Positions 32,201 to 60,228 of a stretch of DNA of 64,000 nt are shown here, one piece after another. Position numbers and translations under genes: made by a program. The notes below the pieces were generated by a model. It worked only from the letters and a program-made list of their open reading frames with translations, was not told the DNA's origin and searched no databases. The number at the start of each line of letters is the position of its first letter. The first letter of the stretch is position 1. Origin of the DNA: a virus (lineage: Duplodnaviria; Heunggongvirae; Uroviricota; Caudoviricetes); IMG/VR virus record IMGVR_UViG_3300029288_003766, positions 89,787 through 153,786 of that record. One strand, written 5' to 3'.

Positions 32201-33162
32201 ATGATATATCAACTGAGAAGAACCATAACTTTGCATTAAGTTGTGGTATTTTTGTTCATAACTCTAGGGCATTGAATTTAGATTCCACGGCTCCTAATTA
32301 TCTTGATCGGTTCAATGCTATGGCCGGGGCGGAAGACCTCATATTCCCGGTTTGGGGAGATGCAAATAATCTGACAGTAGAAACTCTTGGTGGAGAAACC
32401 GATATTCGTTGGATTGCTGACGTTAACAAATTAGAGGATCAGCTTATCACTGCTCTTAAGGTACCAAAACAACTTTTGGCTGGTTTCTCAGGTGAGGGCG
32501 GAGGCGGATTTGAAGGAGGTACAGCTCTTGAGCGTATGGATATTAGGTTCTCTAGACAAGCACGTAGAGTACAGCGATCTATAATCAGTGGCCTAACCCG
32601 TATGGCTCAGATTCATTTGGCCTACCAGGGTATGGATCCAGATCTTAGCCTTTTCCAGATCCATATGGCCGAGACCTCAAGTGCAGAGGAAGTGGAACTA
32701 CAGGATTCTCTTGGCAAATCAGTTGATGCTACTAGAGCCTTTTATGATATGTTGGTTGAGATGATAGGAGTAGATCTGGACAAAAAGACCTTGGTCAAAT
32801 ACATGAATGAGAAGTTTTGGAAGCTATCAGACCTCGATATTGAAACATTATATTTAGAGGGGGATGCTGCAGCTCTCCAACCAGATCAGCGGGATATGCC
32901 TGTTGCGGGTGTTGAGGGTCCTGGTGCTGGTGAAGAAATTCCACCAGAGGAAGGAGAGGCTCCTCCTGAGACACCCGAAGTAGGAGCAGAAGAAGCCCCC
33001 GCAGGGGCACCTGCAGCTCCTAACCCATTTAGGGAAAATTTGTCTATAAGTGATTTAAAGAGTCCTTTGCCTTGCCATAAGTCTGGCCAGATATGGGAAA
33101 GTACGTGGAAGGATATTCCGATTAATATAATAAATACTCCGTTGAACGAAGGCTCTAAATAA
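29203..33162 (+). CDS. portal protein (T4 gp20-like) with two inteins
   Basis: Position between terL and head genes; exteins with FGDMFVEI, WDQVHFRL, YGTSILADALPVWKRLRLAEDSIMIARI, DLIFPV, ETLGG, LKVPKQLL, DIRFSRQARRVQ. Confidence 0.85.
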   Translation: MDIWEGIKINILKFLRGKLVPPRTPVTPAEVKAVVGNKDNSELFRTYGITNDALRQVIADQNLIIYERSSIYQVVDRSLCFTGDTKVALLDGRDIEIKQLVEEFNQGKVNYVYSIDNVGRRLVRSPIKWVGKTGTKEIIKVVLDDGSEIKCTPNHLFMLRDGSYKEAKDLQHDESLMPLYRYIDNYKRKGYWRIYNPFNQHINKEKEYCVQYLYFNKDRPKGTIVHHAFKNFYDFNQNKLDDTPDNHQIITKSEHNSIHADLHPKQSWMIILKTTNYAKYLEWCRNISISRIAKKIPTWQTGLTKETDERLSKLSKKMTGVKYPEERTFNSVVTQLQNKRGISREEAIKIYQFNRTNILCPICGKLMDPHRKTCSYECKYEKQRIDKITPWNKGLKNHKVKEIIQLDVVEDVYDLTVEPYHNFALTAGVFVHNCHALMSAACVAFADCATIRSPLHGSTVWVTSDNKEYRYQLEKMLDVINIEEVIYDWAWTCAAFGDMFVEIFGEPGVGIVCVNDDNHPINVSRVDHNGRLVGFFQTPLGYATSDTRKLLAPWDQVHFRLLGAKKRRPLYQDQQYSEFRTISIMTPDARRLTSKYGTSILADALPVWKRLRLAEDSIMIARIMKSPQRFLFKVVIPDDNSNAEAVANLVDQYQAEIKRCLVGDTKIALLNNTNPTIREMAENKEKYIGKYVYSINPITKAIEPDKIVDVVKTVVDATVMRVHLDNEEYVDCTPDHRFMMRDGSFKEAKDLTRGYSLMPLYMRINDERRRKVFNPKTGKFSLVYKLVSECIDGKTPTDCVVHHENENKLDDDPSNLKIVTKHDHMSIHHLFKDKIITKHGTNEAWNKGLTKETDERVAKYAKTVGEVQRDLYALGLKKVWNKGLTKEEDPRMRIISEKVKESNPMGRPEVRANASKSKMGNHNKPRVLRETRICQCGCDGTFECKSNSEQTYIHNHHRKNKRNSLDHNQKIAFAHSKHEHAVVNHKVVRVEVLPYTIDTYDISTEKNHNFALSCGIFVHNSRALNLDSTAPNYLDRFNAMAGAEDLIFPVWGDANNLTVETLGGETDIRWIADVNKLEDQLITALKVPKQLLAGFSGEGGGGFEGGTALERMDIRFSRQARRVQRSIISGLTRMAQIHLAYQGMDPDLSLFQIHMAETSSAEEVELQDSLGKSVDATRAFYDMLVEMIGVDLDKKTLVKYMNEKFWKLSDLDIETLYLEGDAAALQPDQRDMPVAGVEGPGAGEEIPPEEGEAPPETPEVGAEEAPAGAPAAPNPFRENLSISDLKSPLPCHKSGQIWESTWKDIPINIINTPLNEGSK
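29440..30501 (+). mobile_element. portal intein 1 with HNH endonuclease (354 aa)
   Basis: CFTGDTKVALLDG start, CTPNHLF block B, IVHH...NKLDDTPDNHQIITKSEHNSIH, ends VYDLTVEPYHNFALTAGVFVHN/C. Confidence 0.93.
31180..32262 (+). mobile_element. portal intein 2 with HNH endonuclease (361 aa)
   Basis: CLVGDTKIALL start, CTPDHRF block B, VVHHENENKLDDDPSNL...HMSIH, ends TYDISTEKNHNFALSCGIFVHN/S. Confidence 0.93.
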
Positions 33163-33878
33163 TGCCTAATCATGTTATTAACATATTAACCTTAGAAGGT
33201 CCTTTGTCTAGGGTGAAAGAGATTTTCCGGGCCATCTCACCAGGTCCCTCCCAAGAAGAATTGGCTACTGAGGTCGATAGTCCTACAGAGCCTGGTGGGC
33301 CTTTATTCAAACCAGCTACGAAAGCTAACCTTGCTAAAAGAAGAGAAGGCCGCTATGAGATTGATTTTGAAAAGATAATACCAATGCCTAAAAACATATA
33401 TAGAGGGGATGTAGGTAGCCGGGAAGAAGAGATATATGGTAGAGATAATTGGTACCATTGGAACACTAACAATTGGGGAACAAAGTGGAACGCCTATGAT
33501 ATGTCAAAGATTGATGACTATACTATGACATTTAACACGGCTTGGGCAATGCCAGAGCGGGTGATCAAAGCATTAAGCAAGATGTTTCCTGATGTTGTGG
33601 TAAAGATAAAATGGGCTGATGAGGATATAGGAAGCAACTGTGGTGAGATTCATTATAGAAATGGTGGAGAGATATTTGAGGATACTCCAGAAGATCGAAG
33701 CAAAGAGGCATATGAATTAGCTTTTGAAATAAACGGTGGAGGGGAATATTATACATATGATAAAGACAAAGGCACATATATTTACAAGGAAAATGAATCA
33801 AGAGTGAGCATATATCAAGCTACAGCGGATTTGAAGAATATTTTTGAGCGAATATCTGATTTGAATGAGGCTAAATGA
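33162..33878 (+). CDS. YubB/DUF1281-like ferredoxin-fold protein with an internal FKPA tag and a vestigial C-terminal leader copy
   Basis: MPNHVINILTLEG...IDFEKIIPMP...NWYHWNTNNWGTKWNAYD...FNTAW; insert GGPLFKPATKANLAKRRE. Confidence 0.75.
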   Translation: MPNHVINILTLEGPLSRVKEIFRAISPGPSQEELATEVDSPTEPGGPLFKPATKANLAKRREGRYEIDFEKIIPMPKNIYRGDVGSREEEIYGRDNWYHWNTNNWGTKWNAYDMSKIDDYTMTFNTAWAMPERVIKALSKMFPDVVVKIKWADEDIGSNCGEIHYRNGGEIFEDTPEDRSKEAYELAFEINGGGEYYTYDKDKGTYIYKENESRVSIYQATADLKNIFERISDLNEAK

Positions 33879-34576
33879 GCATATACCAAGACACCGTAGA
33901 GTTGAAGAAAATGTTTGAACAAGGTGTGATGCCTTATTCTCCCGATGAAAATCTTATCAGCCATGAAACATTGGCTGGTACCTCTTTAAAGAATAAGCCT
34001 ATAGAAACTGATGTTGATGAGGCAGAAGAAATTATATTCAAAGCTGCTAGTGCTGATAACTTGTTTAATCGTGGAATGGGTGGCGATGACACAGTTTCAC
34101 TATATAATGATGGTATTGTTGTTGCAGTAGTAAGAAACGAGAGATTGATTAAATACTATCTTAGGGCAATTCGTCGTAAATATTTTATACCACTAAGTAA
34201 GGAAGAAATATCTAAAATTAATGTACTTCCTACTGATATAAATAGAAAATTTTTTAAATCTTCCGATAAAGAAGCAAAAGCAGTTATTGCACTTCCAATT
34301 AAAATGTTTAAATTAGTTAATGAAGCTGAAGAAGCTAATCCTATTTTTAAAACAGCTTCTAAAGAAAATCTTGCTAAAAGAAAAGAACAGCGTGAGTTGC
34401 GAAGATATTATTTTAGTATAACTTTAAATGGTGTAGGATTTGATCCCGATGAAGCTTGGGAAGAAGCTTTAGAGGGTTTTGCACAAGATCCTGGTGGATT
34501 CGGTCCTGATGAGATAACTAAATCAGTTAAGGTTGACCCAGATACGTTTGAAGATTTGCCTGAAAGAAAAATATGA
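33875..34576 (+). CDS. leader-family protein with two internal tags
   Basis: MSIYQDTVELKKMFE; EAEEIIFKAAS; EANPIFKTASKENLAKR. Confidence 0.8.
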   Translation: MSIYQDTVELKKMFEQGVMPYSPDENLISHETLAGTSLKNKPIETDVDEAEEIIFKAASADNLFNRGMGGDDTVSLYNDGIVVAVVRNERLIKYYLRAIRRKYFIPLSKEEISKINVLPTDINRKFFKSSDKEAKAVIALPIKMFKLVNEAEEANPIFKTASKENLAKRKEQRELRRYYFSITLNGVGFDPDEAWEEALEGFAQDPGGFGPDEITKSVKVDPDTFEDLPERKI

Positions 34577-35028
34577 GCTTAGATAAAGATATAACAGAGA
34601 TTAAGAAAGTATTTAAAGATATTGAAACATACACGCGTTTCCCGGCTCGGTTTATTAAAAATCCGATAAAGGAAAATATTCTTGTGCAAAATGTTATAAG
34701 TAAGTCACATGACTATCCAATTGGTTTATTCTGGTATGACATTGAAAATGATTCATTGGACTATGAGCCATTCGTAAAGGGCATGTACCACACAGATACT
34801 AAAGGGTATGAGAAGAACGCTAAAAATCCTTTAGTGTTAAGGGGCCGAGTATTTAAAGATGGAGATAAAAACTACATCATTGTTTATCCAAGTGACTTCA
34901 AATCATTTAATTTTGCTATACCAAAACTTCCATCGCTACTTAATAAAGTATCAGCAGATTCCAATTTACTCATAAGCGGTATTGTAGATGAGGGTGGGTC
35001 TAATCTCTTAGAGCGAAAGAAAATATGA
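34573..35028 (+). CDS. leader-family protein (leader only)
   Basis: MSLDKDITEIKKVF. Confidence 0.8.
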   Translation: MSLDKDITEIKKVFKDIETYTRFPARFIKNPIKENILVQNVISKSHDYPIGLFWYDIENDSLDYEPFVKGMYHTDTKGYEKNAKNPLVLRGRVFKDGDKNYIIVYPSDFKSFNFAIPKLPSLLNKVSADSNLLISGIVDEGGSNLLERKKI

Positions 35029-35396
35029 GTCTATCTAAAGACATAACAGAGATCAAAAAAGTATTTGAAGCTGATGAACCTATCTTTAAACCAGCCAGTC
35101 CAGAAAATATAGGCAAGAGAAAAGAAGAACGTGAGAGAGAACTGGCTAAACAACCTATTATTCCTGTTGATCAGGAAGCATATGATTTGGATGTGAAGGC
35201 TTGGGAGTCATTAAATAAGTTGAAGCGCAGGATAGAATATCTACGAGCTCATTATAATGTAGACCAATGCAAGTGTAGTTGGGAACGTATAGAACTGGCT
35301 GGTGAGGATATAGAGCAATGTGATATACCAGGAGAGAGTGGATGTGCTGATAGATATTGTTTGCGATGTGGTGGTTGGGTAGATACTACTTATTAA
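35025..35396 (+). CDS. leader-family protein with Cys-rich payload
   Basis: MSLSKDITEIKKVFEADEPIFKPASPENIGKR; CKC...CADRYCLRC. Confidence 0.8.
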   Translation: MSLSKDITEIKKVFEADEPIFKPASPENIGKRKEERERELAKQPIIPVDQEAYDLDVKAWESLNKLKRRIEYLRAHYNVDQCKCSWERIELAGEDIEQCDIPGESGCADRYCLRCGGWVDTTY

Positions 35397-35401
35397 TGAC
35401 T

Positions 35402-35875
35402 ATGAGCCTAGAGACTGACATTACGATTATTAAGCGATTGATTGAAACAAATGAACCTGTGTTCAAGGCGGCTACCCCGGAGCAACAGGCAAAGCGTAAA
35501 GAAGAACTGCTTAGCAGGCCTATGTATAAATATGGGCAAGATCTACTTTGGATGGTGAGGAAAAATTTTCGTAATCTTATTATATTCTCAGAGATAAATG
35601 AAGAGGGAGACTTTGTTATAGAGGGGCGTGTAATTGGTGAGCCACATAAAAAGGTTACGGGCCCAATTTGGCAGGAGGAGAATGGAGTTCGCAAACCTAT
35701 ACGCTATGTACCTTTTGCAATATGGCTACATACAGATGGTATGCTTATGATTCTTACCGATGTGTATAGTTATAAAGAGGGGATACTATGTTCATATGAT
35801 GATTTTAACTGGCCGCCAAAAGAAAATATAATTGATAGGCTTAAAAATTTTATGTCTACTCAGGAGTATAAATGA
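35402..35875 (+). CDS. leader-family protein
   Basis: MSLETDITIIKRLIETNEPVFKAATPEQQAKR (start re-called at 35402). Confidence 0.8.
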   Translation: MSLETDITIIKRLIETNEPVFKAATPEQQAKRKEELLSRPMYKYGQDLLWMVRKNFRNLIIFSEINEEGDFVIEGRVIGEPHKKVTGPIWQEENGVRKPIRYVPFAIWLHTDGMLMILTDVYSYKEGILCSYDDFNWPPKENIIDRLKNFMSTQEYK

Positions 35876-36621
35876 GTTTGGAAAAAGACACATCAGAGAT
35901 CAAGAAGCTTGTAGAGGCTAAACCAATTTTCAAAGCCGCTACATCTCAGCAGATAGCTAAAAGGCCGGCTCCCGCAACACGGCCGTTTTATATTGACTTT
36001 GAAACTTGGGTGATCCAGGCTAAGGATGAGAGTGATGCTTTTTTTAGAGCTCGTAAATATATTGCTGCCGGGGTAGTTCCCGATATTGCACAAGCCTCAG
36101 ATGCCTCTGATATGGATATTACTGATGATCGTCTGGGTGATTTTATAAAACTTAGAGTCTCAGGTAAGCCTGAGTTGGGTGGTATGGGTGAGATCCCAGT
36201 GATTGAAGCTAAGCCAGTATTTAAGGCCGCTAGCTCACATAATCTCGCTAAAAGAAAAGAAGAGCGAGATAAAATTTCTCCAACAGATGATACTGTGATT
36301 ACTATCGAAACTGAGTACGGTATACCCATCAGTTTTCTTATAGAAGAATGTTTGAACAAGACTTATTTAGATGCTCAGGGAGATGAAGAAAAAGTAGAGC
36401 GTATGTTTGTTACATCAGGTTTTCATTTGGTTAAAAGAGAGATCAAATCACTAATTGGTGAACTGCCTATACAGCTATTATTAGTTAAGTTTAATGGTAC
36501 CGACAGCGGTAATTGGTCGCATGGTTTTGCTCTCTATTATGTTAAGTTGATGGGAAAGGTAAAAGACTTGAAACAGATTGCTAACGAGGACCAGAATATG
36601 TACTACGATTGGGAAGAATAA
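35872..36621 (+). CDS. leader-family protein, two tagged units
   Basis: MSLEKDTSEIKKLVEAKPIFKAAT; internal VIEAKPVFKAAS. Confidence 0.8.
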   Translation: MSLEKDTSEIKKLVEAKPIFKAATSQQIAKRPAPATRPFYIDFETWVIQAKDESDAFFRARKYIAAGVVPDIAQASDASDMDITDDRLGDFIKLRVSGKPELGGMGEIPVIEAKPVFKAASSHNLAKRKEERDKISPTDDTVITIETEYGIPISFLIEECLNKTYLDAQGDEEKVERMFVTSGFHLVKREIKSLIGELPIQLLLVKFNGTDSGNWSHGFALYYVKLMGKVKDLKQIANEDQNMYYDWEE

Positions 36622-36947
36622 TGAGCATAGAACGAGACACATCAGAATTGAAGAGAATGTTTGAACAAGAAGTACCGTTTAGCGGTAGCCTTTGGGGGCC
36701 TCACCCTCCAAGTAAAACTATGGTTAAGCAGGATACTGCCAAGAGGATCCCGATTGTTAAAAGCAATTGGGATTATGAGGTTACACCAGCGCCAGTTGGC
36801 AATTATGGCTATACGTTGGCTATTTATAAAAACGGCTACCAGGTATTCAAACAGTCTGGCTTTGGTGCAGAAAGCTCGGCTGCTGTTGCAGCCCGAGATT
36901 ATGTTCTGGGAAAAGAGTTTGGTATAGAACAAGAAGACCAAGAATGA
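36621..36947 (+). CDS. leader-family protein (leader only)
   Basis: MSIERDTSELKRMFEQ (start re-called at 36621). Confidence 0.75.
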   Translation: MSIERDTSELKRMFEQEVPFSGSLWGPHPPSKTMVKQDTAKRIPIVKSNWDYEVTPAPVGNYGYTLAIYKNGYQVFKQSGFGAESSAAVAARDYVLGKEFGIEQEDQE

Positions 36948-37705
36948 GCCTAGAAACCGATATTACAATTATTAAGCGATTAGTTGAGGCCCAGCCGATA
37001 TTCAAATCAGCTAGCCCTCAGCAAATACAGAACAGATATGCTGAGAGGATCAGGCAAGAAGAGGAAGCTAAGAGGAGACGTGAACAAGAACGGTTAGATA
37101 AAGAAGAAAGAGCTGCTAGAGCAAAGGTAGAGGCCAAAGACAAAATGATGAGAGCTTTAAGACTTCTGGGTATGACTAAGGTTGAACATAATCCAGATGA
37201 TTGGACTGTTCGTTGCACAGGTAGTAATCAAGCAGGGGAACAGATATCTATGCAGTTATATGGTGATCGTATAACTGTAAATGGAAGATATCCATATAGC
37301 AGCAGAGAGCATTATACTGGTGATGTATACGACCCTGAGAATAATAACAATAAACTTGAACGGCCGGAGATAACTATCTCAGCTGGGAAAACACCTGAGC
37401 AAATGGTTAGGGATATTCAGCGAAGGTTTACTCCTTTTCATCAGAGATATCATACATTGGCCAAGAAGAAAGCTGAGGCTGATGATGCTTATGAGTATGA
37501 AACTACTTCAAATTTGGCGGCTATAAAAGGTTCTAAGCTTAGCGAGTATGAGGAAAAAGAAAGAAGGATTTCGATTAGTTCTAGAGATGATGGAGTTTAC
37601 GGCCATGTTAAAGTAAGTGGATCTTCTGTAAGTATGGAGATTAATGGCCTTACAGTAGATCAGGCTAAGAGAATAACGGCAGTAATAAAAGGAAGAGTAA
37701 GATGA
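36944..37705 (+). CDS. leader-family protein
   Basis: MSLETDITIIKRLVEAQPIFKSASPQQIQNR. Confidence 0.8.
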   Translation: MSLETDITIIKRLVEAQPIFKSASPQQIQNRYAERIRQEEEAKRRREQERLDKEERAARAKVEAKDKMMRALRLLGMTKVEHNPDDWTVRCTGSNQAGEQISMQLYGDRITVNGRYPYSSREHYTGDVYDPENNNNKLERPEITISAGKTPEQMVRDIQRRFTPFHQRYHTLAKKKAEADDAYEYETTSNLAAIKGSKLSEYEEKERRISISSRDDGVYGHVKVSGSSVSMEINGLTVDQAKRITAVIKGRVR

Positions 37706-37986
37706 GTATATATGATGATACCCAAGCGTTGAAGAAGATATTAGAGAGAGATTCTAATATTGGAGCTATTAAGTTTTCAGATCTGTCTGGTCCAGATAAT
37801 AAAAGCCGGTGTTGGTCAGTTGGTCGCGGGCTGCGTAAGTGTCATAAGTGTGATAAATATGCTAAATGTGATAGTAAGATAGTCAACCCTAAGTATGATG
37901 ATCTGATGGCCAGAAGAGCCGCGGCCTTAGAGAAACATCGCCAAGAGCTTGAAGCCTTGGATAATGAAATTGGCGGGATAGATTAA
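37702..37986 (+). CDS. leader-family protein (leader only) with Cys-rich payload
   Basis: MSIYDDTQALKKILE; CHKCDKYAKC. Confidence 0.75.
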   Translation: MSIYDDTQALKKILERDSNIGAIKFSDLSGPDNKSRCWSVGRGLRKCHKCDKYAKCDSKIVNPKYDDLMARRAAALEKHRQELEALDNEIGGID

Positions 37987-39089
37987 TGAGCCTTGAAGTC
38001 GACATCACAGCTATCAAAACATTATTAGAACAAGAAGAGCTTACATTTAAGCCAGCTACCTGGGGCCAAAGACAGAAGCGACAGGTTTTGGTTAATGATA
38101 ATCTTAAAAAAGAAATGGCTAAATATGGAGCAAGGTTTCCTATAGGTAGTGATGTTGTACTAAGGCTTGTTGATTCAGAAGGAGAACCACGCAGCCTAAT
38201 ACCTAAAGTAGGTAAGATAGATTTTTGGTTTATTGGACGGGATAGGATGGAAAGGGAACAAATGGTTTTTATGGATGTGGCGTGGAATAAAGAAAGTCAG
38301 GTACCGAATAATCCTATCTGGAACTCATCTCTAGGAGCAAATGTATTTGAGTATTGGCTATCTACTGGTGAGCTTATTATAACTCCTCCTAAGGTTCAGG
38401 AAGCCGGACAACCTATATTTAAAGCGGCCACACCCGAGCAGATAGCTAAAAGAGGAAACAATCCTATGCTTGAACCCAAGTGGAGTCCTTGGGGTGAGGT
38501 AGATGGCTGCACGACTATTACAACTGGAGTTTATTGGGTTTCCACTCCTAGCCATGGCGGGCTAATGATAGACAATAGGATTATTGGTGGGCTCCTAACT
38601 CCCGAGGCTATAAAAGAAGGAAGTTATTTTGGGGATAATGAGCGTCATTGGACTACCTATGAAGAAGATGAACAGTGCAATGTTGCTTTCTATGAACTTC
38701 AGGAGCGGGGAGTAAGCTTGATTCGGATATTTGGTAATGTCGACACTAAAGACAGTAGGATAAAAAGTCTTTCTAGGTGGCGCCCTGATTATCTTCGGTC
38801 TAGGGGCATAGAACCAGATCCTAAAGAAGTGGCTCAGCATGACACAATGGCCGAAGAAGATAAGATGCGCAAAGATAAACACCCGGATTTGATCACAGCA
38901 GCTCTAAGAGTAGAAGATAATCCAGATCAAACTCAGGTGTGGACAGCAGATGGGAAAAAATATATTGTTACAGGATATGATAGGGAGTTAAGGAATAGTC
39001 ATATAATATGGAGGGGCCCACGCTTGTCTAATGTTAAGATAATCAAGGATTTAGGTATGCGTGAAAGTAGGATAAATAAAGTATTATGA
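37986..39089 (+). CDS. leader-family protein, two units; second payload DUF7007-like (polyvalent-protein-associated)
   Basis: MSLEVDITAIKTLLE..LTFKPAT; VQEAGQPIFKAATPEQIAKR; WSPWGEVD...GVYWVSTPSHGG...YEEDEQ. Confidence 0.75.
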   Translation: MSLEVDITAIKTLLEQEELTFKPATWGQRQKRQVLVNDNLKKEMAKYGARFPIGSDVVLRLVDSEGEPRSLIPKVGKIDFWFIGRDRMEREQMVFMDVAWNKESQVPNNPIWNSSLGANVFEYWLSTGELIITPPKVQEAGQPIFKAATPEQIAKRGNNPMLEPKWSPWGEVDGCTTITTGVYWVSTPSHGGLMIDNRIIGGLLTPEAIKEGSYFGDNERHWTTYEEDEQCNVAFYELQERGVSLIRIFGNVDTKDSRIKSLSRWRPDYLRSRGIEPDPKEVAQHDTMAEEDKMRKDKHPDLITAALRVEDNPDQTQVWTADGKKYIVTGYDRELRNSHIIWRGPRLSNVKIIKDLGMRESRINKVL

Positions 39090-39409
39090 GTATAGACAAA
39101 GATGCTACAGAGATTAAGAAGTTGGTTGAGGCCATACCTGTGTTCAAAGCTGCGTCTCCAGAGCAGATAGCTGCTAGGCCAAAGGATACTGGTTGGGATT
39201 ATGAAAGCTTAAAAGCTAAACTACCTGATGATGTGCAATATATGCAAGATCTTGGTTTTATGGTAGAAATTGACCCCGGTGATGGTCATAGATTAGGTTT
39301 TTTCATCGGGGAAGATATATTTATGGTTGAAGATCTTCCTCATTTATTTAGAGGCATAATGGAATCAGCTCGTAAGTTATCTGATATGGTTAGAGGTCCA
39401 AAAATATGA
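39086..39409 (+). CDS. leader-family protein
   Basis: MSIDKDATEIKKLVEAIPVFKAASPEQIAARP. Confidence 0.8.
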   Translation: MSIDKDATEIKKLVEAIPVFKAASPEQIAARPKDTGWDYESLKAKLPDDVQYMQDLGFMVEIDPGDGHRLGFFIGEDIFMVEDLPHLFRGIMESARKLSDMVRGPKI

Positions 39410-39807
39410 GTCTAGAAAATGATATCACCCATATTAAAAATTCACTCTCAGAACAAGAAAACCCGGTGTTTAAGGCCGCTAGTCCAGAGCAGCTATCGAA
39501 AAGAGAGGAAGCTCGTAAAGCTGATATCCAGAGGCGGATTGCTGCCAATAAGCTTAAAGGTCCTCCTTGGGTAGGACACGAGAAAGGTATATGTCCACGA
39601 TGTGGTAGTGATAATATAGATTATACTGATACAGACGAAGATAGTAATTTTATATTTCACGAATTTACTTGTAGTGATTGTGGGGCTGATGGATATGAAG
39701 AATCTGTTGTAAGGTATAAAAGTAGTGTTATAGAAGAAGACCCAGATAAGAGAAATGTTTTAACATATGATGAGCACGGTAAACTTTTAAAACCACCATA
39801 CAGATGA
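39406..39807 (+). CDS. leader-family protein with Zn-ribbon payload
   Basis: MSLENDITHIKNSLSEQENPVFKAAS; CPRCGS...CSDCG. Confidence 0.8.
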   Translation: MSLENDITHIKNSLSEQENPVFKAASPEQLSKREEARKADIQRRIAANKLKGPPWVGHEKGICPRCGSDNIDYTDTDEDSNFIFHEFTCSDCGADGYEESVVRYKSSVIEEDPDKRNVLTYDEHGKLLKPPYR

Positions 39808-46990: not shown

Positions 46991-46994
46991 AATA

Positions 46995-47019: not shown

Positions 47020-47047
47020 AAGGTTCAATTATAAGGAGATAAAAGGT

Positions 47048-47332: not shown

Positions 47333-47403
47333 TTTTCCACAAAGGGAGCTCTTGAAGATTTTCTTTAACGCTGTACTCGGTCAACTTATAATTAGAGGAA
47401 TAA

Positions 47404-53364: not shown

Positions 53365-54216
53365 ATGAGTTTAGAATATGACGTTACTGAGATAAAAGAG
53401 AGTGTTGAACTAAGAGAGATGATGCTTGCTGAAGGATTTGCTAGAGCAAAGGAATTGTATGTTGACACAAAAAAGATGCCTCTTATGGTTTTAAAGAGAC
53501 TAGCATCTAAAGACCCCACTGAGCAGAAGAAGTATATAGAATGGATGGCTAGAGTATATCTTACACAAAGAAGCTCAAGAGGATTTGAGGCCATTGCTAA
53601 GTTTGATGATCTATGCAACAGAGGTAAGATCCAGCAAAAAGATATTAACCAGTACAGGACTTTGGAAGATGTTGATGATGCTATAAGCCAGGTATTTGCT
53701 AAGGAAGAAACATCAAAGAAGTCAAAAGAGCAAGAATTTAGGGAGACAGTAAAAATAGATACAGAAGTGTTAAAGATGATAGATAAGACTCCTAATGAGG
53801 TTAACCCCGATGGATCAAGAGGTGATCTGTTTTTTGAGAATGACAAAATAGTTATTGCCTGCCCCAGTTCCCAGGCCAAGAGTGAACTATATGGCAGGAA
53901 TCCAGATCCGGCATGCCGCGGGGATAAACCTTCTTATTGGTGCACCGCTACTCCCGGGCAAAGATATTTTGATTCTTATTGGGGCAGCCAAGGTAATGTT
54001 TTATATTATATTTTGCCTAAGACCCCAGATGCTGTTCTTTATGACCCAGAGCCTGGTCACGCTGATAGGTTCTCCAAAGTAGCCATACGTATTCAATCAG
54101 ATGGAGGTGTTGCTGAGATCAGGGATAGGTTTAATATACTTGTTCCAGATGATAAATGGGCGCAATTGTGTAGGTTATGGGGGATTTCCCCTAAGGTATC
54201 AAAGTCAACTAAGTGA
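53365..54216 (+). CDS. leader-family protein (leader only); payload seen in large phages, possibly PcfJ-like
   Basis: MSLEYDVTEIKESVE; KDPTEQKKYIEWM...KDINQY...LYG...WCTA. Confidence 0.7.
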   Translation: MSLEYDVTEIKESVELREMMLAEGFARAKELYVDTKKMPLMVLKRLASKDPTEQKKYIEWMARVYLTQRSSRGFEAIAKFDDLCNRGKIQQKDINQYRTLEDVDDAISQVFAKEETSKKSKEQEFRETVKIDTEVLKMIDKTPNEVNPDGSRGDLFFENDKIVIACPSSQAKSELYGRNPDPACRGDKPSYWCTATPGQRYFDSYWGSQGNVLYYILPKTPDAVLYDPEPGHADRFSKVAIRIQSDGGVAEIRDRFNILVPDDKWAQLCRLWGISPKVSKSTK

Positions 54217-54519: not shown

Positions 54520-54523
54520 GATT

Positions 54524-55621
54524 ATGAGCTTAGAAAAAGACATTACGATTATTAAGCAACTGGTAGAAGCCAAACCAATATTTAAAGCAGCTTCTAACGA
54601 TCAGCTAAAGGCTCGCGGGTATACGGGCAAGGAATATTCTATTTTTATTGGTGATATGTATGATGGCACTGTCAGTGATAAAGATACAGCTATAAGAATA
54701 GCTAGAGGTTATAAATATCCGGGCGTAAGAGTATATGAAGTTCCAGTGGGTTCTGGTATGGCCAGAAGTGTTAATGGTCGTTTGCCTGTTATAGTATTCC
54801 CAGTCTTACCCGAGATTGTAGCAGAGGCTAAGCCGATCTTTAAAGCAGCATCACCAGAGCAATTGGCTATTAGAAAATCTATACGTGATAAAGATTTGGC
54901 AGCAATGCACGCGGGTTGGGCAGAGACAGCAAGATTAGAACTATCTCAATTATTAGCAGTTGAGATTACTTATAGGGAATATGAATACTATGAGGGTCTC
55001 GACGCAGTAGCTATGGAAGTAGTTAATGGCAAAGGAAGTAATGGCGAGAGCGCGTGGATAGTATTTGCAAGCTTAGAAGAAGCTGAGATGGCTGCTTATC
55101 GCAAAGTTGGAGACGATTTAAGAATGGAGCCTGGAATATTTGAACAATCTTGGCTACAGAACTTTATAGAAATTAGTGCTACAGATAAGAGTATGCTTGC
55201 TGGGGAAGAAGCTGATGACTATGTTGATAATGTATTAAGTGATGAAGAAATCCTTGAAGAGGCCGGCGTGAAATATGAATATGATGAGCTACAGGAACAG
55301 CTGGATAATCTTGACACCGAAGCTGATGATGCGGAAATATTAGATAAACAAGCGGAAATATTAGATAATGCCAAAGAAACTATTCGTAGTAGAAAACAAG
55401 AGGAAATTGAACGAGCACTTGAAGATCCTGTTGAATACTTTGTAAATGAACGGGGTATATATACTATTGAAGATTTATTTAAAGCAGCTTTTATACAAAT
55501 TAATGTTGATGATGCCGCTGAGGATGCGGTGGCTACGGATGGAATTGATAAGTGGCTTGATAACTATGATTCTGCAGGTGTTGAACTTCCATCAGGTGCA
55601 ATAGCTTATGGGACAAACTAG
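54524..55621 (+). CDS. leader-family protein, two tagged units, second highly acidic
   Basis: MSLEKDITIIKQLVEAKPIFKAAS; internal VAEAKPIFKAASPEQLAIR. Confidence 0.8.
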   Translation: MSLEKDITIIKQLVEAKPIFKAASNDQLKARGYTGKEYSIFIGDMYDGTVSDKDTAIRIARGYKYPGVRVYEVPVGSGMARSVNGRLPVIVFPVLPEIVAEAKPIFKAASPEQLAIRKSIRDKDLAAMHAGWAETARLELSQLLAVEITYREYEYYEGLDAVAMEVVNGKGSNGESAWIVFASLEEAEMAAYRKVGDDLRMEPGIFEQSWLQNFIEISATDKSMLAGEEADDYVDNVLSDEEILEEAGVKYEYDELQEQLDNLDTEADDAEILDKQAEILDNAKETIRSRKQEEIERALEDPVEYFVNERGIYTIEDLFKAAFIQINVDDAAEDAVATDGIDKWLDNYDSAGVELPSGAIAYGTN

Positions 55622-55624
55622 ACT

Positions 55625-56440
55625 ATGTTAAAGAATTGTTTTCATTGCTGTAAAGAGATAAAAATAAGACCTTGTTATATTAAGGATAAAAATTTTTGTT
55701 CTAAAGAATGCTATAAGGAATATTTAGCTTCTATACGATATATAGATAGGGTTTGCGTGGTGTGTGGTAAGAAGTTTAGGGCTTTATCTACAGAGGTGGG
55801 AAGAGGCAAAGGCACCTGTTGTTCTGTTAAATGCGCTTCAAAGCTTAGTTCTGCAACTAAGAAAAAACTGGCTACTGTAAGAGTGTGCCAGTCATGTGGT
55901 AAGCAATTTGAAGCAAGAACAGATCAAATAAAGTTGGGAAAGGCTAAATATTGTTCAAATAAATGTTTTGGTCAATATCTAAAAACAATATTTTCTGGCC
56001 AGGTTCGTTCTCTCAGGATAAAGAAAAATTGTAAAATATGCGGAGAAACATTTGAGGTTACTCCTTATTTTAAAGATAGGGAAATATGCTCAGCACAATG
56101 CCGAGCTCTTAATGGTAGCAGGCACAATAAGTATAGTGATAGTAGTATAGAGAGAAAGATAAAGAGTTGGTTAATAGAAAATAAGATTAAATTTAATTTT
56201 CAATATCGTGTTCCTGGTGTAGCTTTTCCTGATTTCTTTGTTGAAGACAGATTATGTATTTTTGCTGATGGTGATTACTGGCATAATTATCCTAACGGAC
56301 TTGATAAAGACAGACACCAGGATATTGAGTTGTCTAAGAAAGGTTTTAAAATTTTGCGATTTTGGGAACATGATATTAATGATAATTTTGAATCTGTTAC
56401 TAGTAAGATTAATTTAGAACTAACGGGAGAAAACAAATGA
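55625..56440 (+). mobile_element. multi-zinc-finger plus DUF559/Vsr-like endonuclease (putative homing endonuclease)
   Basis: Four CxxC...F/YCSxxC repeats; PDFFV...FADGDYWH...GFKILRFWEHDI. Confidence 0.8.
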
Positions 56441-59400
56441 GCTTAGAAAATGATATTTCAAACATAAAACGTGGATGTGGTAGTGAAGAAGTATCTGAGA
56501 GGATGAAATGTAGGATTTGTGGTAAACCAGATGATAGTGGGGAATGCGATAACTGTATAAAGAAGAGATCTGGGAAGAAAGAGCCTAAGGATAAGAAATG
56601 CAGGACATGTGGCAAGCCAGATTCTAGCGGTGAGTGTGATGGTTGTATAAAGAAAAGATCTGGAAAGAATGAGCCTAAAGTAACTAAAAAAGTAAAGGAA
56701 TCGGATGAGATAAAACAGCCTGAAACATTAAAGATCGATCAATCTACTGTAGTGTTTAAGAAAGATAATGGTTTTGTGGCTAGAGAATCAGTTGATTTCA
56801 GATCTATCATAGACGGGGTGAACAAAGATATAAGAGAGGGGTATGGTGAAACTTGCGGGGTTCTTCCGGGTGAAGATGAAGAAATCGTGGTGGAAGATCC
56901 TAAAAATGATATTGAAATAACAGATGATGAAACTGTAGAAAAACCGGAAGAAGTAATACAGGTACCTACTACTGACATTCAAGGCCAAGATCAGAATATT
57001 AGCCAAGAAATGGATCAATCGGCTGCCAGAAACGCGGAGGTGGTGGCCAAAGAAGAAGCTTTGAAACAAGAAGTTGGCCAGAATAATGCTCAAGAACAAG
57101 CGGATGAGAAACAACCTACTACTCAACCTCAGGCTTGTGAAACAGAGAAAATAGCTATTGTAGAAGAACCTAAAGAGGAATTGGTTGTTGAGGAACCTAA
57201 CGGTGAGATAGCTATTGAATCTAATGTTGGTGAAGGAAAAGAAGAGCGTGGTAAGCGTGATGGAACAGGGCCTTATAAGTATTCACGTATTAGACAAGAA
57301 GGATTTACCAAAGGTAGACGGAGAATGGCTGGAAAAAAATGTGTAATAAATAAAGAATCAAAAGAAGATTTGGGTAAGTTAATAAGCTGTAGTAGCAGTG
57401 ATAGTTCAGCGGATAGGTCAATAATTGAATCAAAATATAAAGATCAAGAAGCTCCAGATACTGATCAAGAAGCTGCTTTAAGACACGCTAACAAAGGTGA
57501 AGAAGATATAAAAAATAAAAAAGCAGCCAAAAAGAAAGTTAATGAACTGAATATTGCTGATACAGAAGCTACAAAGCATGAACTAGAGAGAATTAAGAAT
57601 AAGGGTGTTAAAAAAAGAAAAGGATCTAAGAACAAAAGCCTTTTTTCCTACCCCACAGATTTGGGAGTAGTTAAACTATCTCCCACTGAGTCTAAAACAA
57701 ACGAAGCAGGCGCCTACGATGTAATGAGAGGACAAGCTGGTCCTAATAGAGTAGTAATCAGATGGAAATACGCAGATTCCTCGGGAACTATGTCAAGTCA
57801 TTTTGCTTCTGTCGAGGAGTTCCTAACTCAGAACGCAGATGGCCATAGAAAAATAGAATGGTATCAGGTAGGTAATGGTGAGAAAGTTGCGATGACAGAA
57901 TCTAAGTTAGTTGGTATAAACGAATCAACAGAAGAAATAATCCAGGCAATTACAAATGGCACTGATCCATATTTTGGCTATGCACACTTCCACTCATCTA
58001 ATATGGCAGATTATACTTTGATGTCTTCAACGATTTCAGATATGGTTAATGTTTATGGTATTAATGAGGTAGAGGCAGCTGATATAGTGCAGGCGTTGAC
58101 TCACGGAGATAATGAATCTAAGACATATCCGTTTGGTGTATCAGAGCTTTCGGATTTTCGCAGTATATTTGAGGGAATTAATAAAGAATCTAAAGTTAAT
58201 GAACGAAATAATATGGAATGTTTAAAATGTGGATTTGAGTTTGCGGGTTCTATAGGAGACGAATGCTCTAAATGTGGAGCTAAAAATGTTCATGTTGTTG
58301 ATAAGAAAGAAAATTTAGAACCTAGACGCAGAGGTAATCGTTATAATAGAAAAAGATTTGGCGGGGATACAGGAGTAGATGCTGATTTTAGAGAGTCTAA
58401 AATTAATGAAGAAGAGGCATTGGCAGGTCCCAATGCTACTGTTGCTCCTGACGCTGGGGCACTTCCTCCAACTAATGATGAACCAAAAATAGACCCGGCT
58501 CAAAATCCTGAAACACATGATAATAACGATCAACAGCCCGATGCTGAAGAACACGGTGAAAAAGAATATTTAGGTAAGAAAGGTGATGACGAATATTATT
58601 ACCTAATGGCTACATCTGATGAGGGAGATGGATCAACAGGTGGAGTAGCTACAGAGAGTAGAGTAAATGAGAAAAAAACTAAATGTAATGCTTGTGGAGC
58701 TGTAGGTAACGATATTCCTGGTGGGCTTTGTCATGCTTGCCAGAAGGGTACTATGGAAGAAATAAAGGAAGGAACACTATTTGTAGACGCTAGCGATGAT
58801 GATTACCGTAATACAGAGAAAAAACTTAGGAACGCCCAGGAATTAGATGCTAAGGACAAAGATTTAATAGCTAAGATGTCTAAGGCCAAGAAAGAAACCG
58901 ACGAACTTGAGAAGATGTATAAGATGGACAACTCTAAAGTTCCCAATGAATCTAAGATTCATGAGGGTTATTCATCGCTTCAGATTGTAGATGCGGAAGG
59001 AAAAGTAGTTGCGGATGCTGAAGAGCAGGAAATTGACCCTAATAATATTAAAGATTTCCTCTTGAAGAATATGGATGATCTCGAATTAACGGAGATTACC
59101 CCGGATATTGTGAAGAAATATTTATTAGTGGATGAGGAAAGCACAGAGGATGAAGATATGACACGTACACCGGAAGAAGGAAACCGTATGAAAGTTCAAG
59201 GGCAGCCTCCGTTTAAGGATGAGGAAGTTATACCAGGGCAGAGTGTGGCAAGTGAGTCAGTAGTTATGGGGTTGCTTGATAAATTTAAACTTAATGAAAC
59301 GGTAGTGGTTGAAGAACTTGGTGTTGATTCTTTGCTGGAAAAGTTTGGATTGGCCGAAAGAGATCTGACAAATTATGTTTCCTGCAATTGTGGGTGGGAA

Positions 59401-60228
59401 GGTGATGTAGATTTTGGTAAACCAAAATGTCCAGAGTGCGGGTGTGAATATAGACTAGATCAATATGATAATTGGGTACCTGTGAAAGAACCTGATGTAA
59501 TTGAATCTTTGTTGAATAAGTTTCAGTTGAGCGAGGCCACACCGGTAGAATTCAAAGGCAGGCCAAAAGAAGATATACGAGATAGAGATTTGACTGGTCA
59601 GGCAGTTACTCCTGAACAAGTAGATCCTTCTAAAGCAGCACCGGAAGTTTCAGCTTCAGCAACCCCGGTTGAACCTGTTTCTGAACCAGGAGCAGAAGCT
59701 CCTATTGGCGCAGGTACAGAAGCAGGTCCAGGTCCAGGTGTTACTGGAGCTACAGGTGGTGGAGTCCCCGGCGGGGCAGCTGAGCCTATTGCTCCTGTGC
59801 AAGCACAGGATATGAGCAACCCAGAAAGTGCAAAGGCCTATATACAATCTGAGTATCCTGAGGAACCATTTACAAGCACGGCTATAGCCTATGCTGATTC
59901 TATGATTGCAGATCCAAAGGTTTATGGAGCAGTTAGACAAATGAATTGGGGTGGGATCTGGGGTGATTCAGATACATTTTTGAAGCAGGCAAAAATAGTT
60001 GGAGAATACAAACCTTTTTCTCCAGACGCAGCTAAAGCTCTTGTGGATAAGTTTGGCAACAGCGCTAAGTATAAATTAGCTAGGGAGACACGTCCTGTTG
60101 TTTATGTTGTTTTGAGGGATGTAGGAGCCGGCGTAGAACCTGTTTCATTAAGTGAGCTAAAAGGAATGACTGGAGCTAGGGAAGTACAGGCAACGGAAAA
60201 CCAAGGTGAAGTTAAGATCATATATTAA
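56437..60228 (+). CDS. giant acidic leader-bearing head-associated polyprotein (1263 aa), scaffold/core- or cargo-like
   Basis: MSLENDISNIK leader; several Zn ribbons; repeated ESKxNE linkers; directly upstream of the prohead protease. Confidence 0.7.
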   Translation: MSLENDISNIKRGCGSEEVSERMKCRICGKPDDSGECDNCIKKRSGKKEPKDKKCRTCGKPDSSGECDGCIKKRSGKNEPKVTKKVKESDEIKQPETLKIDQSTVVFKKDNGFVARESVDFRSIIDGVNKDIREGYGETCGVLPGEDEEIVVEDPKNDIEITDDETVEKPEEVIQVPTTDIQGQDQNISQEMDQSAARNAEVVAKEEALKQEVGQNNAQEQADEKQPTTQPQACETEKIAIVEEPKEELVVEEPNGEIAIESNVGEGKEERGKRDGTGPYKYSRIRQEGFTKGRRRMAGKKCVINKESKEDLGKLISCSSSDSSADRSIIESKYKDQEAPDTDQEAALRHANKGEEDIKNKKAAKKKVNELNIADTEATKHELERIKNKGVKKRKGSKNKSLFSYPTDLGVVKLSPTESKTNEAGAYDVMRGQAGPNRVVIRWKYADSSGTMSSHFASVEEFLTQNADGHRKIEWYQVGNGEKVAMTESKLVGINESTEEIIQAITNGTDPYFGYAHFHSSNMADYTLMSSTISDMVNVYGINEVEAADIVQALTHGDNESKTYPFGVSELSDFRSIFEGINKESKVNERNNMECLKCGFEFAGSIGDECSKCGAKNVHVVDKKENLEPRRRGNRYNRKRFGGDTGVDADFRESKINEEEALAGPNATVAPDAGALPPTNDEPKIDPAQNPETHDNNDQQPDAEEHGEKEYLGKKGDDEYYYLMATSDEGDGSTGGVATESRVNEKKTKCNACGAVGNDIPGGLCHACQKGTMEEIKEGTLFVDASDDDYRNTEKKLRNAQELDAKDKDLIAKMSKAKKETDELEKMYKMDNSKVPNESKIHEGYSSLQIVDAEGKVVADAEEQEIDPNNIKDFLLKNMDDLELTEITPDIVKKYLLVDEESTEDEDMTRTPEEGNRMKVQGQPPFKDEEVIPGQSVASESVVMGLLDKFKLNETVVVEELGVDSLLEKFGLAERDLTNYVSCNCGWEGDVDFGKPKCPECGCEYRLDQYDNWVPVKEPDVIESLLNKFQLSEATPVEFKGRPKEDIRDRDLTGQAVTPEQVDPSKAAPEVSASATPVEPVSEPGAEAPIGAGTEAGPGPGVTGATGGGVPGGAAEPIAPVQAQDMSNPESAKAYIQSEYPEEPFTSTAIAYADSMIADPKVYGAVRQMNWGGIWGDSDTFLKQAKIVGEYKPFSPDAAKALVDKFGNSAKYKLARETRPVVYVVLRDVGAGVEPVSLSELKGMTGAREVQATENQGEVKIIY
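56509..56680 (+). repeat. 90-bp tandem duplication encoding CxxCGKPDxSGECDxCIKKRSGKxEPK twice
   Basis: Copies start at 56509 and 56599. Confidence 0.85.

Follow-up and report, generated by a model that had tools for sequence, protein, structure and literature searches.

The window, the whole 64,000-bp stretch of DNA that was analysed, comes from the 214,968-bp (215-kb) genome of an uncultured phage with a T4-type head. Its head module contains an array of at least 25 neighbouring genes, about 27 kb long, that share an N-terminal leader. The array fills the interval from a T4-type portal gene to the gene for a protease of the gp21 family (S77) that carries a scaffold-like tail (Table 1). From the portal through the capsid gene, the gene overlaps are 1 to 4 nt, mostly 4 nt, in an operon-like packing, and the capsid gene begins 24 nt 3′ of the protease gene. 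The T4 gene order is 20-67-68-21-22-23, and therefore the array occupies the gp67/gp68 slot. The protease has its S77 domain in residues 1 to 225, with His81 and Ser136 invariant among the 49 homologues compared, and the remaining ~540 residues form a largely helical tail that is probably the scaffold. No scaffold gene separate from the protease was found ahead of the capsid gene, and the scaffold would here be part of the protease protein. The capsid protein, of gp23 type, also starts with MS and has LVE at residues 8 to 10; a conserved IFE/TT site marks its expected propeptide boundary, where [IL]-[FM]-E is kept by every relative seen. The head-gene context claimed in the original prediction was thus confirmed.

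Table 1. Features of the head module in window coordinates; gene numbers refer to the leader-bearing genes.
Feature	Coordinates	Strand	Evidence
Three leaderless minigenes, tag 2 fused to differing capsid-protein fragments (aa 250-313, 18-61, 435-463)	22457..23076	+	blastp E 3e-16, 5e-20, 2e-8
Leaderless gene, tag 2 + weak copy of capsid-protein propeptide	27581..27826	+	
Portal, T4 gp20 type, 1319 aa, intein + HNH insertions	29203..33162	+	Pfam Portal_T4 9.6e-24, Intein_splicing 5e-40 (2 stretches), HNH_3; PHROG portal
Api92-like/DUF1281_C protein, leaderless, first after portal	33162..33878	+	Pfam PF18406 2.8e-17
Gene 1, 233 aa, MSIYQD-type leader, inserted conserved module, tag 2 at aa 54	33875..34576	+	
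Gene 2, 151 aa, leader only	34573..35028	+	
Gene 3, 123 aa, leader + tag 2, Cys-rich cargo	35025..35396	+	
Gene 4, 157 aa, leader + tag 2	35402..35875	+	
Gene 5, 249 aa, leader + tag 2, second VIE/tag-2 junction aa 112-116, two modules	35872..36621	+	
Gene 6, 108 aa, leader + FSGSLWGP module, no tag 2	36621..36947	+	
Gene 7, 253 aa, leader + tag 2 + long Glu/Arg/Lys-rich helix	36944..37705	+	
Gene 8, 94 aa, leader only, small Cys-rich cargo	37702..37986	+	
Gene 9, 367 aa, leader + degenerate tag 2, second junction aa 139-144, DUF7007	37986..39089	+	Pfam 3.5e-13
Gene 10, 107 aa, leader + tag 2	39086..39409	+	
Gene 11, 133 aa, leader (cut site shifted: LSE 14-16) + tag 2, zinc ribbon	39406..39807	+	
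Gene 12, 113 aa, leader + tag 2	39804..40145	+	
Gene 13, 1150 aa, predicted polyprotein	40142..43594	+	
Gene 14, 118 aa, leader + tag 2, zinc ribbon	43962..44318	+	
Gene 15, 136 aa, leader + tag 2	44315..44725	+	
Gene 16, 196 aa, leader + tag 2, cargo paralogous to gene 24 C-terminus	44722..45312	+	
Gene 17, 177 aa, leader only, DUF5662	45316..45849	+	Pfam 8.4e-28
HNH homing endonuclease, located among the array genes	45842..46687	+	
Gene 18, 140 aa, leader + tag 2	48455..48877	+	
Gene 19, 297 aa, leader + tag 2 + charged helix, paralogue of gene 21	48889..49782	+	
Gene 20, 474 aa, leader only, conserved core cargo	49784..51208	+	
Gene 21, 519 aa, leader + tag 2, second junction aa 286-291	51205..52764	+	
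Gene 22, 283 aa, leader only, conserved core cargo	53365..54216	+	
Gene 23, 365 aa, leader + tag 2, second junction aa 101-105, acidic domain	54524..55621	+	
Second homing endonuclease, HNH plus Vsr/DUF559	55625-56440		
Gene 24, 1263 aa, leader truncated and lacking LVE, conserved core cargo with nine CxxC pairs	56437..60228	+	
Small conserved leaderless gene, immediately 5′ of protease	60241..60636	+	
Prohead protease, 766 aa, S77 (gp21-type)	60639..62939	+	Pfam S77 above cut-off; PHROG 207 9.2e-25
Major capsid protein, gp23 type, 490 aa, extends to 64436	62964..64000 (window end)	+	

The 24 leader genes originally listed all start with ATG, encode proteins of 94 to 1263 residues, and begin with MS[LIF]xxD[ITVA]xx[ILV][KR]. 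The leader is an amphipathic sequence of 15 residues (consensus MSLEKDITxIKxLVE) in which Met1, Ser2 and Asp6 are present in all 24 genes, Lys11 in 23, Glu15 in 21 and Ile10 in 20, and position 13 is Leu, Met or Val in 20. Its C-terminal end is hydrophobic-x-Glu, a gp21-type cut site, as had been proposed. Two of the 24 leaders (genes 2 and 24) have no canonical site at residues 13 to 16, gene 2 because position 15 is Lys. No sequence similarity was found between the leader and the T4 targeting sequence.

A regular-expression scan of all six frames of the whole genome gave 25 matches to the leader, all on the + strand, all at ORF starts and all in one 31-kb stretch, with none elsewhere in the 214,968 bp. 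The 25th leader gene starts at window coordinate 64868, beyond the window end and 3′ of the capsid gene. It was found that the peptide is conserved and that its codons vary: at identical residues the same-codon fraction was 0.49 in the leader and 0.45 in the second tag described below (tag 2), and six codons are used for Arg. Within the leader, Asp is GAT in 13 and GAC in 11 copies, Lys is AAG in 13 and AAA in 10, and Leu uses four codons, with a mean nucleotide identity of 66%. The sequences upstream of the leader starts share no similarity.

Tag 2 is a 14-residue element, [IVL]-F-K-[AP]-A-[ST]-x-x-[QEN]-[ILV]-x-x-R. The original count of 17 genes with a leader followed by tag 2 was correct, but that account of tag 2 was incomplete, as there are 38 copies genome-wide. 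Sixteen immediately follow a leader (Phe at residue 19 to 22), one lies at residue 54 of gene 1, beyond an inserted module, 12 are found within long proteins that have a leader, one is in the Api92-like protein, and eight are at the extreme N-termini of small leaderless genes outside the array, on both strands. Four of these eight are located in the interval from the large terminase gene to the portal, and the other four are in replication-like or other non-structural regions, with neighbours that include a DnaB-like helicase and a radical-SAM gene. In the Api92-like protein, tag 2 is in an internal loop (aa 48) with no cut site before it, and is retained in homologues (P0043, P0061, L016:4843). 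Several proteins have a long charged helix after tag 2, in the arrangement of an anchor plus a spacer. The structural matches of the DUF5662 protein, which has an HD-like fold, begin at residue 26, and in an AlphaFold model of the gene 23 module tag residues 1 to 9 are coil and the remainder begins a helix; on these models, the tags appear to lie outside the cargo folds.

Hydrophobic-x-Glu sites also precede the internal tag-2 copies, which indicates that the long genes encode polyproteins. A site of the form [LIVMFYT]-x-E ends 1 to 7 residues N-terminal of tag 2 in 143 of 155 internal copies (92%, compared to a background of 21%) and in 114 of 126 N-terminal copies, and the residue following the predicted cut is mainly Ala or Asp. 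Gene 13 has one leader and nine tag-2 junctions (nine stretches, E 1.6e-68), and its product is predicted from the sequence to yield nine modules of 60 to 259 residues.

As stated in the original prediction, the cargo parts are mutually unrelated; the exceptions are the tag itself and three paralogue pairs. The DUF7007, DUF5662, CxxC zinc-ribbon and mostly acidic domains reported among them were all recovered. Residues 117 to 242 of gene 13 are homologous to a hypothetical protein that T4-like Acinetobacter phages encode in their early region, and another module is common in other phage proteins, where it has no tags. The 264-residue acidic domain of gene 23 (net charge −40) gave a confident fold with no structural match, and no cargo domain matched known anti-defence or effector families. 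Gene 20 cargo is present in every related array, and the ancestral 5′ end of gene 24 appears to have been displaced by an inserted cassette.

When protein clusters were searched with a leader-plus-tag profile, 213 metagenomic clusters matched at E≤1e-3 and 65 at ≤1e-10; the matches mostly begin at residue 1, with up to nine tag copies per protein. None of these related proteins came from cultured phages or cellular genomes, and the motifs were found in no cultured phage. Related arrays lie after the portal or before the protease/capsid genes in G001/L003/L004, L012, L016, L020 and L023, so that on five other contigs the arrays are linked to head genes and are not in early regions. The gene 20 orthologue of a more distant phage (L007) has the leader MFKNLLNILME, compared to MSFEKDITEIKRLVE in this phage; both end in hydrophobic-x-Glu, an instance of leader swapping. 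In the L009/L010 lineage, where the polyprotein genes are located around baseplate-hub genes, the N-terminal leaders are short and variable (4 to 12 residues) and the cut site and tag 2 are constant; elsewhere in the family the shortest leaders have 2 residues (P0143). Tag 2 is the sole constant N-terminal element in some lineages; it predates the leader and has a wider distribution.

In T4, the prohead core contains IPI-III, Alt, gp67 and gp68, gp21 cuts off short N-terminal peptides, the capsid-targeting sequence takes foreign proteins into heads, and injected IPI blocks GmrSD (PMC9958956, PMC3012670, PMC5694885). Compared to T4, the array looks like a much enlarged, two-signal version of capsid protein loading. 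We consider it probable that the leader is a lineage-specific, removable capsid-targeting propeptide. The cut site, context, synteny and leader swapping agree with the original proposal of a capsid-targeting leader cut by the gp21-type protease, which had overlooked tag 2. Every computational test able to count against capsid targeting gave an outcome favourable to it, and the proposal is partly supported.

Because tag 2 is older, more widespread and present on leaderless proteins, the leader may not be the sole, or even the main, address signal. It is possible, although we favour it less, that tag 2 is the main capsid address, which would dock cargo to the protease-scaffold core or inner capsid wall in the manner of an encapsulin cargo-loading peptide. 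On that view, the position of the protease next to the docked tag would account for cleavage at the adjacent hydrophobic-x-Glu site, and the leader would serve either as a cleavable cap particular to the lineage or as an additional helix that binds the core; leaderless tag-2 proteins, capsid-fragment minigenes included, would be packaged too. This is consistent with the occurrence of tag 2 behind diverse or near-absent leaders across lineages (MEDIFKPAG, MLNEDVFKPAG, MRELIEAIQEADVFKPAS), as in L009/L010, where tag 2 may be the real address. It is also consistent with the cut site being always on the N-terminal side of tag 2 at a distance of 2 to 5 residues, with the conserved loop tag of the leaderless Api92-like first gene, with the four leaderless genes between terminase and portal, and with the anchor-plus-spacer layout. 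However, the conserved head proteins of genes 20, 22 and 24 and the DUF5662 protein have a leader and no tag 2, so that the leader alone seems sufficient for them; capsid protein cleavage is predicted with no tag 2 nearby, the spacing between cut site and tag ranges from 2 to 7 residues, and four leaderless tag-2 genes are in the non-structural regions.

It is rather unlikely that the packaged proteins are mainly structural. They would in that case form an enlarged and mostly acidic inner core for organising assembly or DNA, comparable to the phiKZ-like inner body, and would be degraded or kept in the head instead of being delivered as host-directed effectors. The pI is below 6 for 26 of the 37 predicted mature parts, the slot is that of T4 gp67/gp68, which are degraded (PMC9958956), no effector domains were recognised, and genes 20, 22 and 24 and the gene at 52751 are conserved throughout related arrays. 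Against this, the tag-2 modules are folded, unrelated small domains that mostly differ between close relatives, which fits arms-race cargo better than scaffold, and two modules have the early-region accessory and widespread untagged homologues noted above.

We consider it improbable that tag 2, or the leader, is instead a site for a modifying enzyme or for cytoplasmic sorting or degradation, such as by a radical-SAM maturase or a host unfoldase. One leaderless tag-2 gene is immediately downstream of the radical-SAM gene, and tag 2 would be near the N-terminus of every mature product. However, that gene adjoins just 1 of the 38 copies, its match in the nearest relative is weak (33% over 88 aa) with no tag gene adjoining, and ClpP is absent from the genome. 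Furthermore, the fifth tag position is S, T, G or D depending on lineage, as expected of a helix cap but not of a modified residue, and the tight linkage to gp21-type sites and head modules would be left unexplained. The shared 5′ ends could be a nucleic-acid element, that is, a translational-regulator binding site or recombination site, given that every leader copy is at a translation start, that the operon is translationally coupled and that a cassette-plus-endonuclease insertion gave gene 24 a new leader-type start (so that the shared sequence may also aid cassette exchange), but the free synonymous variation, low nucleotide identity and unrelated upstream sequences, together with internal tag copies away from starts, make this highly improbable.

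On the favoured reading of the leader as a targeting propeptide, the region would be an expanded locus for the internal (prohead-core) proteins of a jumbo phage whose head is of T4 type. Each product would be made with a 15-residue propeptide, the lineage's own capsid-targeting sequence, that recruits the protein into the scaffolding core assembling on the portal. After shell closure, the S77 protease would cleave behind the Glu of hydrophobic-x-Glu, with loss of the leader, and would also cleave such sites within the long polyproteins of up to nine modules, which would give about 40 mature proteins. Most variable modules would then start with tag 2, which is 2 to 5 residues past the cut and would be kept as a separate, older docking peptide whose candidate partners are the protease/core, the inner capsid wall or DNA. 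From the T4 precedent, the mature proteins would probably exit the head along with the DNA. What is new in this system is the second tag, which each mature module would retain, together with the leaderless proteins that carry it, including those fused to capsid-protein fragments.

All 24 of the genes that the original prediction grouped by a common N-terminal leader were found to begin at the ATG of an open reading frame, to encode proteins of 94 to 1263 aa, and to start with MS[LIF]xxD[ITVA]xx[ILV][KR]. Leader residues M1, S2 and D6 were present in 24 of 24 copies, K11 in 23 and E15 in 21, and position 13 was L, M or V in 20 of the 24, giving the leader an ending of the gp21 type, (L/I)-x-E. 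A search of the complete 214,968-bp genome, in all six frames, for the leader pattern gave 25 matches, all at plus-strand ORF starts within one 31-kb stretch and none outside it. The 25th gene lies directly past the capsid gene. Chance is not an issue as the source of this repetition.

The possibility that the shared 5′ ends are an RNA or DNA element was rejected on the basis of synonymous-codon variation. Identical residues in different copies used the same codon in 49% of cases for the leader and in 45% for tag 2, the second shared peptide (FK[AP]A[ST]..[QEN][ILV]..R). The leader Asp is encoded by GAT in 13 copies and GAC in 11, the Lys by AAG in 13 and AAA in 10, and six codons are in use for the invariant Arg of tag 2; the sequences upstream of the leader copies are unrelated to one another. 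Selection acts on the peptide rather than the nucleic acid, for both leader and tag 2.

The array of leader genes starts where a gp20-type portal gene ends, at its stop codon, and runs up to a 766-aa protein, the first 225 residues of which are an S77 (T4 gp21-type) prohead protease, with the gp23-type capsid gene 24 nt farther on. Membership of the protease in this family was indicated by Pfam S77 (31.5 bits; cut-off 27) and PHROG 207 (9.2e-25), and His81 and Ser136 were invariant in an alignment of 49 protease homologues. The portal and capsid proteins matched the Portal_T4 and Gp23 profiles, completing the gp20/gp21/gp23 gene set. No separate scaffold gene is present, and the protease has a long tail, largely helical, that is likely the scaffold. 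Between the portal and capsid genes, most neighbours overlap by 4 nt or 1 nt, and therefore the array would be expressed together with the head genes; the T4 late promoter TATAAATA was not enriched on the coding strand. The gene order in T4 is 20-67-68-21-22-23, and so the array occupies the place that gp67 and gp68, two core proteins, have there. In a close relative, a single 1236-aa gene starting MSADKTIFE matches window 54226-60228, a stretch that here looks like a cassette insertion tied to a homing endonuclease.

Coordinates of features in and around the array (window positions unless stated otherwise; leader genes are named by their start in the window)
Feature	Position	Observation
Window	G000:C1:89787-153786	Location in the whole genome under study
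Chaperonin pair	14696-16783	GroES-like and GroEL-like, upstream of packaging/head genes; read from translations only
Capsid-fragment minigenes	22457-23076	Three adjacent in-frame fusions with tag 2; the aa 18-61 fusion is 66% identical to the phage's own major capsid protein
Fourth capsid-fragment minigene	27581-27826	In-frame fusion with tag 2, near the other three
Portal	29203-33162	1319 aa owing to intein-type insertions: two Intein_splicing stretches, Hint module, HNH endonuclease
Leader-free block inside array	45842-48108	HNH endonuclease, small zinc-ribbon protein, 234-aa Cys/His-rich protein; similar block in the relative G001
CspA-like cold-shock protein	46745-46990	In the leader-free block
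Gene remnant	54226	97-aa remnant of a MSADKTIFE-type gene start
Leader cassette	54524	Follows the remnant
HNH/Vsr-type endonuclease	55625	Follows the remnant and cassette
Leader gene	56437	Rest of the split 1236-aa-type gene, restarting with an MS-type leader
Protease	60639-62939	At aa ~335-375, a ~40-residue module (WRLYSKDGSKNLGTF..L.AAKKHE) common to otherwise unrelated proteins at 75-84% identity, including acetyltransferase-domain and cytidylyltransferase-like ones (clusters P0200-P0203)
25th leader gene	64868-65752	Beyond the window end; product Cys/His-rich; counterpart in a relative has a weak TnsA-like endonuclease match; in locus L007 the capsid gene is interrupted by a TnsA-like gene
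Locus L028, with a leaderless tag-2 gene	genome 24549-26904, minus strand	Tag-2 product with hydrophobic segment; immediately upstream of its gene are a MoaA/SPASM-like radical-SAM gene and three small unknown ones, one Cys-rich
Papain-like (Peptidase_C1) gene of G001	L004 1263-2096	No leader; within the relative's array; absent from the window

T4 gp21 cuts after Glu in (L/I)-x-E, trimming short N-terminal peptides from internal proteins and Alt (PMC9958956, PMC5694885). Candidate cut sites were counted at 281 tag-2 copies in the best 150 family members, with random positions in the same proteins as background. It was found that [LIVMFYT]-x-E ended 1-7 residues upstream of tag 2 in 114 of 126 N-terminal copies and in 143 of 155 internal copies, the latter relative to a background of 21%, and that the residue following the junction Glu was mostly Ala or Asp. 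Therefore, given the sites before internal tag-2 copies, the long genes are read as encoding polyproteins. The predicted yield of 25 genes in the window is ~37 mature parts of at least 35 aa (about 40 products overall), nine of them from a 1150-aa polyprotein alone. In every relative examined, the capsid protein has [IL]-[FM]-E where its propeptide is expected to end, a site that fits the same protease specificity. The leader is probably a cleavable capsid-targeting propeptide.

The second tag was borne out in the 17 leader genes credited with it, directly after the leader in 16 and past an inserted module in one. The Phe, Lys, Ala and Arg of tag 2 are invariant; at the fifth position lineages differ in having S, T, G or D, each a good helix cap, and a short helix comes next. 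In an AlphaFold model of the 54524 module (pLDDT 90), the nine first residues are coil and the remainder begins a helix. Several proteins have a long charged helix straight after tag 2, in an anchor-plus-spacer layout. If the cut falls at the upstream Glu, tag 2 would be kept on the mature protein.

Tag 2 was also found in proteins that have no leader. In the leaderless Api92-like first gene it lies in a loop with no cut site, and homologues retain this loop tag. Eight leaderless small genes have it at the very N terminus: four in the terminase-portal interval, two beside a DnaB-like helicase gene, one after a radical-SAM gene, and one in another minus-strand region. A leaderless protein beside the helicase gene had no homologues, and a link between tag 2 and the radical-SAM gene was set aside, as it is a single adjacency and the match in the nearest relative, the one checked, was weak. 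Three of the eight genes join tag 2 to fragments of the capsid protein (aa 250-313, 18-61 and 435-463; E 3e-16, 5e-20 and 2e-8), and such minigenes could be decoys, assembly regulators or recombination relics. In loci L009 and L010, polyproteins with variable leaders of 4-12 residues and constant E-D-[IV]-FKPA junctions surround baseplate-hub genes. As judged from these arrangements, tag 2 is a module separate from the leader and older than it, and together these observations show that it has a function of its own.

A docking peptide for a head component (the protease-scaffold, the inner capsid wall or DNA) ranks first among the roles that tag 2 might have, ahead of a handle acting after delivery and, lastly, an enzyme recognition site; the idea of a degradation tag, in a genome that has no ClpP, is speculative. 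We suggest only tentatively that tag 2 itself serves as an address or docking code. It is similarly possible, although doubtful, that tag 2 is a second, pan-lineage address code kept on the mature protein, which alone would dock any protein inside the head, at the protease-scaffold or inner capsid wall, or label it to leave together with the DNA. Complex prediction for the full protease-scaffold and a leader-plus-tag peptide gave a score of 0.00, which has no bearing either way.

The distribution of the family was evaluated by searching 1.84 billion representative proteins with a 40-position leader-plus-tag profile, which yielded 213 clusters at E ≤ 1e-3, of which 65 reached ≤ 1e-10. The matches mostly begin at residue 1, with up to nine tag copies per protein. 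Among cultured phages, no leader or tag was detected by tblastn in 50,697 phage records, where a single cargo domain was matched, and a scan of 185,579 cellular genomes gave no motif; a literature search for the leader and tag motifs found none. The same layout is present in five other contigs: IMGVR_UViG_3300009502_002976 (28 matches; also seen as L004 and L012), L016, L020 and L023. In all five, the leader genes start directly after the portal gene or extend as far as the protease and capsid genes, and leader genes in early regions of relatives, the outcome that the original prediction had named as speaking against it, were not seen. Genes 49784, 53365, 56437 and 52751 and the Api92-like gene form a recurrent core set of these arrays, and the tag-2 modules vary from array to array. 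Both motifs were absent from the stretches examined of L001, L005 and L006, which hold more distant protease relatives.

In the more distant contig L007, with a protease of 42% identity, cargo 49784 has an orthologue that begins MFKNLLNILME, and other proteins begin ML[IN]ELYN.LKEQDRFSD followed by a diverged tag 2. The leaders before the tag in further lineages are MRELIEAIQE, MSIKKLFE, MLNE and even ME. The leader is lineage-specific, and differing leaders on one cargo, all ending in hydrophobic-x-Glu, would look like what is expected of a removable propeptide co-evolving with its own core.

The claim that the cargo is unrelated from gene to gene held after removal of the tags, except for three pairs of paralogues, and the DUF7007 and DUF5662 assignments were confirmed by Pfam. 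Across all leader genes, Pfam and PHROGs gave only these two families, phrog_20074 (unknown function) and weak zinc-ribbon matches, and PDB sequence searches with 56437, 49784 and 40142 gave no matches. The DUF5662 protein is HD-like, with structural matches that begin at residue 26, beyond the leader. One polyprotein module is homologous to an early-region hypothetical protein of T4-like Acinetobacter phages and also occurs in Lak megaphages. Among the 37 predicted mature parts, 26 are acidic, one with a net charge of -40. The acidic 54524 module is widespread in other phage proteins that lack the tag; its fold, modelled with confidence, had no match in PDB or AlphaFold DB, and a role as a DNA mimic could not be assigned. 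In T4, IPI is injected and blocks GmrSD (PMC3012670). No search identified a cargo function, and therefore the reading of the cargo as an effector arsenal is extrapolated from the precedent of T4.

Among known systems the capsid-targeting sequence of T4 comes closest, and the testable defining features of that system were found here except for homology of the leader. The T4 sequence is described on IPI, IPII, IPIII and Alt, from which the prohead protease gp21 cleaves it off (Mullaney and Black 1996, reviewed in PMC9958956, PMC3012670, PMC5694885). As in T4, a short N-terminal leader ending in hydrophobic-x-Glu is common to unrelated proteins, the head genes are of the gp20, gp21 and gp23 types, and the cargo is polymorphic, that of T4 being injected against host defence. 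In contrast, the leader here has 15 residues rather than 10 and no sequence similarity to the T4 leader MKTYQEFIAE, the common features on direct reading being only the amphipathic pattern and the terminal x-E; it is an analogue, not a homologue. There are 25 genes and about 40 predicted products compared with 3-4 in T4, the genes lie within the head operon in the portal-protease interval, many products are polyproteins, a second tag retained after the cut site is predicted, and the probable scaffold is fused to the protease.

The ejection or inner-body proteins of phiKZ, 201phi2-1 and SPN3US are processed by a gp21-related protease (PMC5694885, PMC10052503). These phages also have many head-internal proteins, cut after Glu by an S77-related protease; their propeptides are thought to target the prohead, and the SPN3US paralogues gp53 and gp54 have identical N-termini. 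Their motif is (S/A/G)-x-E and their propeptides are mostly >100 residues, whereas the leaders here are not of this kind, having 15 aa with L, I, V or M at P3. Neither a common short leader over unrelated proteins nor a repeated junction tag is reported for the phiKZ type.

Polyvalent proteins of phages and conjugative elements (Iyer, Burroughs, Anand, de Souza, Aravind 2017; PMC5512222) similarly combine several unrelated small domains in one polypeptide encoded beside virion genes; packaging, delivery along with the DNA and, in some cases, proteolytic processing are predicted for them. The multi-module proteins here have 2-9 modules each, none matching a catalogued polyvalent-protein conflict domain, and no built-in peptidase domain (zincin-like MPTase or similar) was found in them. 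They differ in having regular cut-site-plus-tag junctions between domains and in a processing that we assign to the prohead protease. In encapsulins, a short linear cargo-loading peptide, usually C-terminal, docks diverse cargo inside an HK97-fold shell. The resemblance to tag 2 would be a functional analogy only, as the sequence differs and a protease and scaffold are also involved here.

What is new in this system is its scale, the construction of polyproteins through regular cut-site-plus-tag junctions, the second tag predicted to be retained, and the occurrence of that tag outside the array. If our reading holds, about 13% of the genome would be devoted to pre-made proteins that travel in the capsid, sorted by a peptide code of two parts, found again in at least 213 protein clusters of uncultured phages, and the array would be a natural example of effector polyproteins processed by a head protease. 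A retained tag would pose a question absent in T4, namely what holds or guides the cargo once the targeting leader is removed. Were tag 2 an address code, a single phage could package about 40 interchangeable modules, leaderless proteins and decoy pieces of its own capsid protein among them, and the tag would be a ready-made handle for bringing foreign cargo into large capsids. On our main reading, both short peptides would be candidate handles for the same purpose, and virion-delivered proteins in metagenomes could be listed from sequence only. Almost all of the modules here are without a known fold or family, and it is among virion-delivered proteins of this kind that new functions in anti-defence and host takeover would likely be found.
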